This document shows positions 19,184 through 21,281 of a stretch of DNA of 64,000 nucleotides, one piece after another. This stretch comes from an uncultured Methanolobus sp. Its GTDB lineage: Archaea > Halobacteriota > Methanosarcinia > Methanosarcinales > Methanosarcinaceae. The position numbers and the translations under genes are program-made. The DNA is taken from positions 2,080,001 through 2,144,000 of the forward strand of contig OY776215.1 in assembly GCA_963675495.1 (NCBI GenBank), written 5' to 3'. Position 1 is the stretch's first letter. Every line of letters starts with the position of its first letter. The notes under the pieces were generated by a model. It saw only the letters and a list, made by a program, of their open reading frames with translations, searched no databases and had not been told where the DNA came from.

Positions 19184-19948
19184 ATGACTGAAATAATCAC
19201 TCTTACTATACTAGGCGGCGTTGACAAGGACGGTGTTGATGAGCCCATAAGATCAGTTGACATCTCCCGCGGTGAGATCGTGGGCATTGTAGGCCCCACA
19301 GGCTCCGGAAAAAGCACACTTATTGATGACATAGAGCAATTGGCCCAGGGAGACACTCCAACCGGCAGGACACTTCTTATAAACGGTGAAAAACCGGATG
19401 CAAATATACGTGTGGACCCGCGCAAGAAACTCGTTGCCCAGCTCTCACAGAACATGCATTTCCTTGCGGATATGACAGTTGAGGAATTCCTGCAGATGCA
19501 CGCACGCAGCAGGGGCAAGGATGCAAGCCTTGTCGCAAGGGTCATCGAGCTTGCAAATACACTTACAGGCGAACCCATCGCTGCACATCATCATCTGACC
19601 GCTCTTAGCGGAGGTCAGTCCCGGTCACTCATGACTGCAGATATTGCAGTGATCAGCGATTCCCCAGTGGTACTCATCGATGAAGTAGAGAATGCCGGTA
19701 TTAAAAAACAGGAAGCTCTTGAGTTACTTGCAGGAGAAGGCAAGATAGTTGTCGTTGTTACACATGATCCTGTGCTTGCCCTGATGTCATCCCGCAGGAT
19801 CGTTATCCGAAACGGTGGCATGGTGGATATAATCAGCACAAGCTTACAGGAACAGGATGTTTGTGACAGGATCACAGAGGTCGATAACTGGCTCATGTCC
19901 CTCAGGGAAACCATCAGGCGCGGGGATATCGTTGAGGGCGTCGCATGA
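19184..19948 (+). CDS. Stand-alone ABC-type ATPase (no permease)
   Basis: [22 protein letters not shown]. Confidence 0.88.
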
Positions 19949-20643
19949 AACTGGTTGTAATTGCAGGGACTCCTGGCTCTGGAAAGACATCTGTGCTGCT
20001 CCACGCCATCAAAGCTCTCATGAAGCACGAAAAAAGGCCAGCTGTTGTTAAAGTAGACTGCCTCTGGACAGATGATGACCAGCGTTTCAAGAAACTGGAT
20101 ATTCCGGTTCATGTGGGCCTTGCCAAGGACATGTGTCCTGACCACTTTACCATTTACAACACCGATGAAATGCTCAAATGGGCAGAGGACGAAGGTGCCG
20201 ATGTCCTGCTAAGTGAAACGGCCGGACTTTGCCTGCGCTGTGCTCCGTACCCGGATGAGTGTCTTGCAGTTTGTGTAATAGATGTAACCACAGGTCCGAA
20301 CACTCCATTGAAAGTTGGTCCTCTTCTTACAACAGCTGATGTTGTTGTCACAACAAAAGGTGACCTTGTATCTCAGGCAGAGCGGGAGGTTTTCAGGGAA
20401 CGTGTGCTTGAAGTTAACCCCGGATGTAAGATCGTGGAAGCCAACGGACTTACCGGTAAAGGCTCATTCGAGTTTGCAGAACTAATACGCTCCGGTCCTG
20501 ATGTCTGTGATAATATGATTTTACGCTATAATCCTCCACTTGCAATATGTTCCCTGTGTACCGGGGAAACCCGTGTTGCAAGGAAACATCATATGGGTGT
20601 CCTCAGAAGCCTTGATGGCTTTATGGAATACAAAGGAGAATAA
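19945..20643 (+). CDS. HypB/UreG/CobW-like (G3E) metallochaperone GTPase
   Basis: [33 protein letters not shown] overlap with upstream gene. Confidence 0.85.
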
Positions 20644-20645
20644 CT

Positions 20646-21281
20646 ATGGATGAGATTGAAAAAATGCTTCCTGGTTACAATTGTGGTAGTTGCGGGTATC
20701 GCCAGTGCAGGGAGTTTGCAGCAGAGATCAAAAATGCGGAAGACCTGCAGAGATGTCCTTTCCTTTCCCGTGATAATTTCCAGGACAATGTGAAAAATAT
20801 ACTCCTCCTTCTGGGTGAAGATATTTCCAAAGATGAAAAGATAATTGGCATTATTGACGGTATGGAAGCGGATTTCACACTGGCTCCTCTTAAGGCCGAG
20901 TGTTCATGCAGGGAAGACATCCATCCCTTTGATACTTCTATAGAAGTGGAAGTCGGCGACATGCTTCGATACAGACCACTTGGCTGTCCTGTGACTCATT
21001 TTGCAAAGGTCATCGATAAAACTCCCGGTGCAATATATACAGTGCACATGGTAGGGCCACTTCATAGGCTAGGAAATGAAGACTTTAAGTTCAAGGATAT
21101 CGGCTTGTGTATGATACTTGCTTTTGATGGCAAGGTTGCAAAAGGTAAGATCCCAAAAGTAGCTCAGACCGTAAAGTTCGTTCCTGAATACTGTATGATG
21201 CAGAAGGTCCATTCAGGTATGGTCGTAGGTGTGGAAGGCAGAAGCGTTCGTATTGAAGCGATCGATCTTAAAGTATGGTGA
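20646..21281 (+). CDS. Fe-S-binding protein (RnfB/AcsC-type N-terminal 4Fe-4S domain)
   Basis: LPGYNCGSCGYRQC...CP; further Cys/His motifs GCPVTH and CMMQKVH. Confidence 0.85.
   Translation: MDEIEKMLPGYNCGSCGYRQCREFAAEIKNAEDLQRCPFLSRDNFQDNVKNILLLLGEDISKDEKIIGIIDGMEADFTLAPLKAECSCREDIHPFDTSIEVEVGDMLRYRPLGCPVTHFAKVIDKTPGAIYTVHMVGPLHRLGNEDFKFKDIGLCMILAFDGKVAKGKIPKVAQTVKFVPEYCMMQKVHSGMVVGVEGRSVRIEAIDLKVW

Follow-up and report, generated by a model that had tools for sequence, protein, structure and literature searches.

GTPases of the G3E family, HypB, UreG and CobW among them, are metal insertases, and in HypA/HypB(/SlyD) and UreDEFG such a GTPase is encoded beside a small metal-binding partner. 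Soluble ABC-type ATPases also occur in metallocentre systems: SufC acts as a permease-less ATPase on a cytoplasmic scaffold in SufBCD, and component A2 of the methyl-coenzyme M reductase (MCR) activation complex, a protein with two ABC domains, drives low-potential electron transfer in methanogens. To our knowledge, no described G3E system includes a soluble ABC ATPase. Such a combination is encoded in the 64,000-nucleotide stretch of DNA analysed here (the window), which stems from an uncultured Methanolobus sp. (assembly GCA_963675495.1, contig OY776215.1, positions 2,080,001 to 2,144,000). Within an operon for coenzyme M (CoM) biosynthesis, three consecutive genes on the plus strand, hereafter the trio, encode a soluble ABC-type ATPase of 254 aa (window 19184-19948), a HypB/UreG-like G3E GTPase of 232 aa (19945-20643) and a COG2000-type iron-sulfur (Fe-S) protein of 211 aa (20646-21281). 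Our preferred reading, which we offer tentatively, is that the trio could form a self-contained metallocentre module driven by nucleoside triphosphates, an optional accessory of the cysteate-synthase-type CoM operon that serves its metal, sulfur or electron chemistry. Without CoM there is neither methane formation nor anaerobic oxidation of alkanes. The final step of its biosynthesis is the one understood least, and an optional, conserved three-gene cassette within the operon presents itself as the most obvious candidate, so far unexplored, for a missing donor or helper.

The colocalisation of these genes with CoM genes is already in print. The legend to Fig. 2 of Chadwick et al. (PMC12068725, cited here and below from part of its text) records it with the comment 'role unknown', and an earlier note on this DNA, made from the sequence alone, therefore overstated the novelty of the arrangement. 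The S1 Fig and S1 Table of the same work, which cover neighbourhoods in all MCR-containing genomes, may already show much of the distribution reported below. A full-text search for 'COG2000' returned nothing relevant beyond that work and its preprint. New here are the fixed gene order, the quantified decoupling of the trio from the COG1900 enzyme MMP16 (ComF), its presence and absence within one genus, a Cys2His2 domain without a structural match, a variant with a cysteine desulfurase and a bacterial sister module.

In the window, six plus-strand genes with cysteate synthase (CS) first and ComE last are joined by overlaps or by gaps of at most 3 nt (in order, a 2 nt gap, a 4 nt overlap, gaps of 2 and 3 nt and a 1 nt overlap). 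CS (17931-19181; TIGR03844, 591.5 bits against a cut-off of 324.9; PF00291), which by its TIGR03844 family assignment opens the cysteate-type CoM pathway with its first committed step, is followed by the trio and then by the alpha and beta subunits of sulfopyruvate decarboxylase, ComD (21285-21809; TIGR03845, 226.7 against 147.95 bits) and ComE (21809-22372; TIGR03846, 241.9 against 221.5 bits). MMP16, in which a 2x[4Fe-4S] ferredoxin domain is inserted into a COG1900 domain, is encoded on the minus strand (22341-23624; TIGR03287, 520.4 against 363.95 bits; PF01837, 334 bits) and converges with ComE, with which it shares 32 nt. All seven open reading frames (ORFs) are ordered and packed as the earlier note had described. 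While CS, ComD, ComE and MMP16 each score above their own NCBIfam equivalog cut-off, the trio genes match general families only (the ATPase PF00005 with 62 bits, the Fe-S protein PF04060 at residues 8-39 alone), and NCBIfam holds no specific model for any of the three. A TATA-box-like TTTATAAT (17902-17909, plus strand), read from the sequence about 25 nt ahead of the start codon of CS, is a candidate archaeal promoter of the six-gene unit; together with the tight packing it suggests a single six-gene transcript running from CS to ComE. In agreement with the same note, a family scan of the 10 ORFs between 16367 and 24826 revealed neither a permease nor a solute-binding protein.

The GTPase resembles its counterparts in the HypB and UreG systems. 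It belongs to the same G3E family (PF02492 at residues 4-164, 54 bits against a cut-off of 20.7), carries Walker A, ExxG and [N/T]KxD motifs and has a Cys-His motif at the HypB/UreG position. In an alignment of 18 sequences, GxxGxGKT, C64-P-D-H67, E91-x-A-G-L-C96-x-R-C99, T137-K-x-D and C202-x-x-C205 were found in all 18; at the level of single residues G8, G13, K14, T15, E91, G94 and T137 are invariant and D140 is present in at least 90%. The base-specificity motif has Thr in place of the usual Asn. HMMER alignments place the CPDH stretch, a predicted metal-binding site, on the nickel-binding motifs of HypB ('CHLD') and UreG ('CP-H'), and the nearest solved proteins are HypB (2wsm, 31 bits) and UreG. 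The GTPase thus has metal-binding features of the HypB/UreG type, and of the four additional cysteine motifs listed in the earlier note, CPDH, CLRC (C96, C99) and CSLC (C202, C205) proved invariant, while the cysteine of 'VDC' (C40) is not conserved. Unlike HypB and UreG, the trio GTPase possesses two extra invariant CxxC pairs and scores below the equivalog cut-offs, with 56.9 against 121.2 bits for the best of them, HypB (TIGR00073), and 30.3 against 204.2 bits for UreG (TIGR00101). The HypB score is so far below the cut-off that, judged by sequence, the protein is not HypB proper. Its partners differ as well: in place of HypA or UreE there is an Fe-S protein with an unmatched fold, neither hydrogenase nor urease is encoded in the neighbourhood, and, unlike in any G3E system known to us, the GTPase is always accompanied by a soluble ABC ATPase. 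As a separate observation, orphan GTPases of the CoM-linked type, 70% identical, occur without an ABC or Fe-S neighbour in two metagenome-assembled genomes (MAGs) of the type of Methanosarcinales or anaerobic methanotrophic archaea (ANME) (L097, 8001-8708; L098, 1724-2431), the former adjoining a Pyr_redox_2 gene resembling thioredoxin reductase.

The ABC protein has the hallmarks of the PF00005 class: Walker A, Q-loop, signature, the D-E of Walker B and the H-loop. All of these are kept in 22 of 22 homologues (Walker A G37-K43, Q89, the LSGGQ motif L141-Q145, D166-E167 and H194), and a family-specific E-N-A-G stretch after Walker B is invariant as well. The closest solved nucleotide-binding domains (NBDs), those of MacB and LolD, reach just about 60 bits, compared with 221 bits and 47% identity for ABC', a G3E-linked paralogue in the same genome. 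The protein does not form part of a complete ABC transporter as far as the genes near the trio are concerned: the unit contains no gene for a permease or binding protein, either among the 10 ORFs scanned or in the 40 of 40 loci in which the GTPase gene follows the ABC gene, a distant permease being conceivable. As a permease-less ATPase for which we propose a cytoplasmic metallocentre scaffold, it is reminiscent of SufC, and one variant of the trio includes a cysteine desulfurase; unlike SufBCD, the trio has no SufB- or SufD-like scaffold, its GTPase is obligatory, and SufC is not among the best 25 of 156 NCBIfam matches. The pairing of a soluble ABC ATPase with Fe-S proteins in a methanogen-specific context may also be likened to component A2. 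The trio ATPase would stand apart from A2 in having a single ABC domain within 254 aa and different partners.

The third protein consists of an N-terminal RnfB-like 4-Cys [4Fe-4S] domain (approximately residues 1-60), a linker and an all-beta C-terminal domain (approximately residues 70-211). In an alignment of 32 sequences the four cysteines of the PF04060 domain (C13, C16, C21 and C37; 40.3 bits against a cut-off of 23) are invariant, as are R110, C114, P115, H118, G162, P180, C183 and H189 in the rest of the protein. The AlphaFold2 model has a predicted local distance difference test (pLDDT) value of 92.7 with a dip at residues 51-70, which look like a linker in the model. Residues 1-60 superpose on RnfB (9eri_B; Z 5.1, root mean square deviation 2.2 Å, 55 residues, 27% identity; VIA-align, 48,161 chains), and the resemblance to the N-terminal domain of RnfB and of the large subunit of the corrinoid iron-sulfur protein is therefore found both in sequence and in the model. 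Unlike RnfB, the trio protein has no ferredoxin domains and no membrane anchor, its C-terminal domain is different, and it fails the RnfB model TIGR01944 (32.8 bits against a cut-off of 68.7), which it matches at residues 2-39 alone.

The C-terminal domain modelled alone reached a pLDDT of 92.6. Its best structural match over the same 48,161 chains has a Z of 3.9 (VIA-align), which is below the usual noise level of the tool, and Foldseek against the PDB at E<=1e-3 gave no match for the whole Fe-S protein or for this domain alone. The insert domains of SlyD/FKBP proteins align with Z 2.8-2.9, too low for use, and pieces of about 70 residues resemble common small beta-barrels. Going by the model, we describe this part as a beta domain with an invariant Cys2His2 set and no match among solved structures, by which a new fold is not proven. 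A search of the ESM Atlas with it returned only a cluster named '(Fe-S)-binding protein' with the same Pfam domain (0.77), probably the protein's own family. Among the 150 matches listed, no protein longer than 300 aa that would indicate a gene fusion (Rosetta stone) matched the domain save the spurious P0139 and P0204 (ChW repeats). A Rieske-type [2Fe-2S] identity was considered and rejected. The Rieske ligand motif is CxH ... CxxH, the spacings here are C114-x3-H118 and C183-x5-H189, and no Rieske-family protein stood out structurally; an aromatic-ring dioxygenase chain (7q05_F) appeared at rank 45 of the Foldseek list with a probability of 0.04 and a TM of 0.09, which is noise level, and the VIA-align list for the C-terminal domain contains none. 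The family is narrow: among 1.84 billion, a limit of E<=1e-3 yields 166 cluster representatives and one of E<=1e-10 yields 56, and every named match or locus belongs to a methanogen or to ANME except for one MAG labelled Bacteroidaceae. The protein from the window is 88% identical to that of M. mangrovi.

We surveyed 301 genomes of the same phylum that are at least 85% complete, the source genome (G000) included. A genome counted as a carrier when it had a match to the Fe-S protein that covers the C-terminal domain; short matches to residues 1-65 are PF04060 domains of the RnfB/CdhE type and were excluded as non-homologues of the whole protein. MMP16 was called with TIGR03287 at E<=1e-60 and CS with TIGR03844 at E<=1e-80, and linkage means a distance within 5 kb, with coordinates compared by hand. 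The surveyed genomes are kin, and the counts describe a pattern without a statistical test. By these definitions, 69 of the 301 genomes contain the Fe-S protein, 137 MMP16 and 140 CS. In 44 carriers both CS and MMP16 are found within 5 kb of the trio; 15 have CS alone at this distance, three have MMP16 alone (second MMP16 copies, two of them on short contigs) and seven have neither; taken together, CS is linked in 59 carriers, MMP16 in 47 and at least one of them in 62. A general lack of linkage to CoM genes, which the earlier note had named as part of one outcome that would speak against its proposal, is not what we find. In all 40 loci for which about 19 kb around the match were labelled by phmmer, the genes stand in the order ABC>G3E>FeS on one strand, and in 34 of them a CoM gene is directly adjacent. 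This conserved arrangement is far beyond chance, and the premise that the trio is a conserved, translationally coupled module with no transporter partner holds.

The surrounding operon takes several forms. Outside the family of the window's own organism the commonest layout is ABC>G3E>FeS>MMP16>CS>ComDE; others that recur are the window's type (CS>ABC>G3E>FeS>ComD>ComE with convergent MMP16), CS>ABC>G3E>FeS, and ABC>G3E>FeS>CS>ComDE. Searching genomes that represent single species with an alignment of the GTPase, we retrieved 32 loci of the CoM type, spanning Methanosarcinales, Methanotrichaceae, ANME-2, Methanomassiliicoccales and one Methanopyri MAG. CS is found beside the trio in 21 of these, many of the others being on short contigs, and the full seven-gene layout of the window recurs in three Methanomassiliicoccales MAG loci (L099-L101).

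Within the window's own genus the trio is dispensable. In G111 and G226, both 99% complete, the CoM cluster reads CS>ComD>ComE with convergent MMP16 and no trio in it, CS abuts ComD directly (4 nt overlap and 2 nt gap, respectively), and no full-length homologue of the Fe-S protein exists anywhere in either genome. The MMP16 proteins of these congeners match that of the window with 818-824 bits. Two further genera of the family have the same compact, trio-free cluster. This clean presence and absence within one genus offers a ready-made comparison. In the opposite direction, two genomes of a genus otherwise devoid of the trio, each with two MMP16 matches, carry a second, divergent MMP16 copy beside it in the ABC>G3E>FeS>MMP16 operon type on short contigs (L043, 239-3715, in G288; L047, 7907-11352, in G266), and here the trio and MMP16 look as if they had been acquired together by horizontal transfer.

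How might such a module work? Gene coupling, motifs, domain architecture, linkage and dispensability were observed directly; what we infer is which way the transfer runs, which metal is involved and which enzyme is the client. At a Cys/His interface, a GTPase dimer would hold either a metal (Ni, Zn or Fe) or a small unit of metal and sulfur, and GTP hydrolysis would cause this cargo to be handed over to the Cys2His2 site of the Fe-S protein. A dimer of the ABC ATPase could be the soluble clamp that drives or gates the hand-over, comparable to SufC in Fe-S assembly. The loaded Fe-S protein would then feed the sulfur-inserting end of the pathway by delivering reducing equivalents, activated sulfur or both to an aldehyde-thiolating COG1900 enzyme, which would be MMP16 where present and an L-ASST-type enzyme where MMP16 is absent. 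The trio would not mature MMP16 itself, and it would likely matter chiefly when free sulfide is scarce. The published text on MMP16 leaves room for such a helper: the sulfur species and the electron count of its reaction are described as undetermined, the enzyme is essential in sulfide-free conditions only, and its conserved core cysteines are dispensable (PMC12068725). L-ASST, moreover, has a separate sulfur-trafficking partner, MA1715 (PMC12068725). The trio as proposed would resemble MA1715 in being an accessory that helps a COG1900 aldehyde sulfurtransferase to use sulfide efficiently (PMC12068725); it is apparently unrelated to MA1715 and, as an NTPase module, differs from that single protein.

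Several observations weigh against this assignment. The kinship of the genomes makes the counts overstate the number of independent events. In the seven carriers mentioned above the trio is unlinked to CS and MMP16, and in Methanopyri, where all six genomes searched have the Fe-S protein, it is away from any CoM gene in the three loci examined. G227, a genome of one contig and 99% completeness, possesses an intact trio and no CS (best match 110 bits against the cut-off of 324.9), ComE or MMP16; the function of the trio therefore cannot be exclusively related to CoM. Finally, the trio is found beside CS more often than beside MMP16 (59 and 47 of 69 carriers, respectively), a pattern that would be explained just as well if it acted at the sulfite end of the pathway.

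That last possibility, in which the trio makes, carries or channels sulfite, the donor of the sulfonate sulfur, to CS or activates CS in some other way, deserves to be spelled out. CS is the most frequent neighbour of the trio and is present in 68 of the 69 carriers, and one family has CS>ABC>G3E>FeS with MMP16 elsewhere or on another contig. Methanopyri, with the ComA route of CoM synthesis, would need sulfite too. Where the sulfite for making CoM comes from is not clear according to the cited part of PMC6286981. None of the trio proteins, however, matched a siroheme or sulfite reductase family in our family scans, CS-positive genomes without the trio (72 of 140) are as common as those with it, and G227 has retained the trio without CS. 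CS itself was reportedly characterised as a pyridoxal phosphate enzyme (Graham et al. 2009), which likewise counts against this reading. We regard a role at the front of the pathway as distinctly unlikely.

The NTPase pair of the trio has relatives beyond CoM operons. A second locus of the source genome, outside the window (L003, 6649-9591, corresponding to G000:C1:888648-891591), has the order DUF1858-SBP_bac_6>G3E'>ABC'. The first gene encodes a homologue of solute-binding proteins (SBPs) with 411 aa whose N-terminus is a DUF1858 domain and not a signal peptide; G3E' is 47% identical to the trio GTPase, and ABC' has an N-terminal extension of about 90 aa. We retrieved 48 further SBP>G3E'>ABC' loci (L106-L153), 40-43 of them with the three-gene core, mostly from anaerobic bacteria (Fusobacterium, Clostridia, spirochaetes, Cloacimonadota, Fermentibacteria, Desulfuromonadales and Izemoplasmatales) and a few from Methanospirillum. 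In Syntrophomonadaceae and Methanospirillum a variant order, G3E>ABC>SBP-like, exists. No member of this module has a specific NCBIfam model, and among the papers listed for DUF1858 no title or abstract opening concerns it. Recurrent neighbours in the 48 loci are an Rrf2-family regulator upstream (8), a hybrid-cluster protein (Hcp) nearby (6) and an unannotated ORF of about 80 aa downstream (11); all three are phylogenetically clumped and hence weak hints at iron, Fe-S or sulfur homeostasis. Since NTPase pairs with 47% identity are combined with different third genes, the GTPase and the ATPase are, as judged from these sequences, an ancient pair to which different third subunits are joined. 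Near the module of the source genome there are also a URO-D (MtaA-like) gene and a DUF1638 gene.

The existence of this paralogous module in bacteria that make no CoM, its Rrf2-type regulators and Hcp neighbours and the solitary trios of Methanopyri and G227 could mean that the trio has a general function in the trafficking or repair of iron-sulfur centres, iron or sulfur and is merely co-regulated, the link to CoM amounting to genomic hitch-hiking. The same idea receives support from a cassette variant in two genomes of one genus, in which a cysteine desulfurase of the NifS/IscS type is encoded between the GTPase and the Fe-S protein (L051, 8266-9471, plus strand; L069, 9965-11128, minus strand; TIGR03402, 483-485 bits; NF002806, 330-336 bits against a cut-off of 304), the trio there not being beside CoM genes. 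This desulfurase inside the cassette is, for its part, also in keeping with sulfur delivery, an option in the earlier note that survives. Hitch-hiking is hard to square with the 62 of 69 carriers in which a CoM gene is no more than 5 kb from the trio, across three operon layouts, and a general system hardly fits an Fe-S protein family as narrow as 166 representatives, whose named members come from methanogens and ANME save for the one MAG labelled Bacteroidaceae. We therefore consider this explanation improbable as well.

A bolder idea goes further than our preferred assignment of the trio to the CoM operon. The GTPase and its cognate soluble ABC ATPase might represent an undescribed two-NTPase class of metal or sulfur traffickers, widespread in anaerobes and equipped with interchangeable third subunits, which in methanogens, together with a [4Fe-4S]/Cys2His2 protein of new fold, would act as a high-affinity supplier, driven by nucleoside triphosphates, of activated sulfur (or of sulfide bound to a metal) and electrons for the reductive thiolation of sulfoacetaldehyde. 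We judge this to be rather unlikely in its entirety. If it were true, the third subunit in many anaerobic bacteria and in the second locus of the source genome would be a cytoplasmic SBP homologue, and the supplier would allow CoM synthesis when free sulfide is scarce and would explain why the conserved cysteines of MMP16 are dispensable. A function found for the trio in methanogens would also annotate the broad family of NTPase pairs in Fusobacterium, Clostridia, spirochaetes and other anaerobes.

In principle, the position of the trio could also be explained if it were a maturase dedicated to MMP16, in which it would build or insert a metal or Fe-S centre, as the earlier note had proposed. 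In the commonest operon type MMP16 follows immediately downstream of the Fe-S protein, in 47 of 69 carriers it is no more than 5 kb away, a second copy travels with the trio in G288 and G266, and G3E GTPases are generally known as metal insertases. The occurrence of the two across genomes, however, does not agree with a dedicated maturase. MMP16 is missing in eight of the 69 carriers, five of which belong to one genus and include two single-contig genomes, while three belong to another genus and are fragmented assemblies, and 76 of the 137 MMP16-positive genomes have no Fe-S protein. Phylogenetic profiling, which the earlier note had suggested, thus confirmed the linkage to CoM genes and showed that the trio can occur without MMP16 and MMP16 without the trio. 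The clearest case is G061 (L073), a genome of one contig and 99% completeness with an ABC>G3E>FeS>CS>ComDE operon, whose sole COG1900 gene falls below the search threshold of the MMP16 model. In its genus (g47, to which G227 also belongs) four of the five genomes sampled have CS and, where checked, ComDE and no MMP16 at E<=1e-60, and the three genomes searched for COG1900 genes contain one each, all below the MMP16 threshold. The trio has outlived MMP16 in this genus. Furthermore, CS is the closer neighbour more often, and the two trio-free congeners of the window's organism encode a near-identical MMP16. In M. acetivorans, cs, comDE and MMP16 bear the consecutive locus tags MA3297-MA3299, and E. 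coli with the M. jannaschii MMP16 homologue alone turns sulfoacetaldehyde into CoM (both from the cited part of PMC12068725). Taken together, the carriers devoid of MMP16, the congeners devoid of the trio, the contiguous locus tags and the conversion in E. coli argue that the trio is not needed for MMP16 maturation and is a dispensable accessory, which leaves a dedicated maturase quite doubtful. Note that a complex prediction for MMP16 and the Fe-S protein scored 0.00 in two runs for which controls were not folded, and weighs neither way.

The same MMP16-less genus could be taken to indicate that sulfoacetaldehyde can be reductively thiolated by the trio itself, as an alternative or back-up partly redundant with MMP16, since four of the five sampled genomes combine CS, ComDE and trio in one operon without that enzyme. 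According to the cited part of PMC12068725, back-up CoM routes that are not identified there do operate when MMP16 is deleted, and an L-ASST-type enzyme is proposed for them. It is precisely such a COG1900 enzyme, already the published candidate, that these genomes retain; moreover, there is no catalytic precedent for the folds of the trio proteins, and 61 of the 69 carriers have MMP16 as well, which makes a catalytic role of the trio very improbable. It is barely conceivable that the ABC protein powers, as its ATPase, an importer of sulfonates or CoM whose other genes lie elsewhere, or that the trio is regulatory, as the NMT1/SsuA-like genes lying divergently upstream of it in three loci might suggest, because the SsuA-like proteins lack signal peptides, one of their genes stands beside a helix-turn-helix (HTH) gene, the conserved unit has no permease and the GTPase directly after the ABC protein in 40 of 40 loci, and the ABC protein shows about 60 bits to any transporter NBD against 221 bits to its G3E-linked paralogue.

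The SsuA-like genes themselves are located on the minus strand in L073 (6101-7042), L072 (6308-7267) and L045 (6449-7192). The N-termini without signal peptide are those of the L073 and L072 proteins, and the regulator gene next to the former is of the HTH_3 type (7046-7534, minus strand). Judged by these features, an SsuA-like protein of the L073 type and its HTH neighbour may form a cytoplasmic sensor-regulator pair for sulfonates, possibly CoM. Two single cases were noted at the other two loci. Next to the unlinked trio of L072, the opposite strand encodes a LarE-type ATP-dependent sulfur transferase (10245-11057, minus strand; TIGR00268, 266 bits), and next to the trio of L045, a second copy, there is a gene for a RACo-type corrinoid reductive activase (10587-12101, plus strand).

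Some features of the window's CoM genes and their surroundings complete the picture. ComDE is oxygen-sensitive. No redox or Fe-S statements on this enzyme were found in PMC12713407. The N-terminus of CS has a cysteine cluster, C8-x2-C11 ... H15 ... C22 (window 17931-18000, CS residues 8-22), that resembles the zinc-ribbon of archaeal threonine synthases, and CS itself may on this basis be a metalloprotein. Directly downstream of MMP16 on the same strand, an ORF of 377 aa (23693-24826, minus strand) has no significant match in Pfam or NCBIfam. Just ahead of the CoM operon lie, in this order, the genes for a tetratricopeptide repeat (TPR) protein of 1053 aa with a hydrophobic N-terminus (13168-16329, plus strand), a phosphatase of the HAD family (16367-17041) and another TPR protein (17074-17796).

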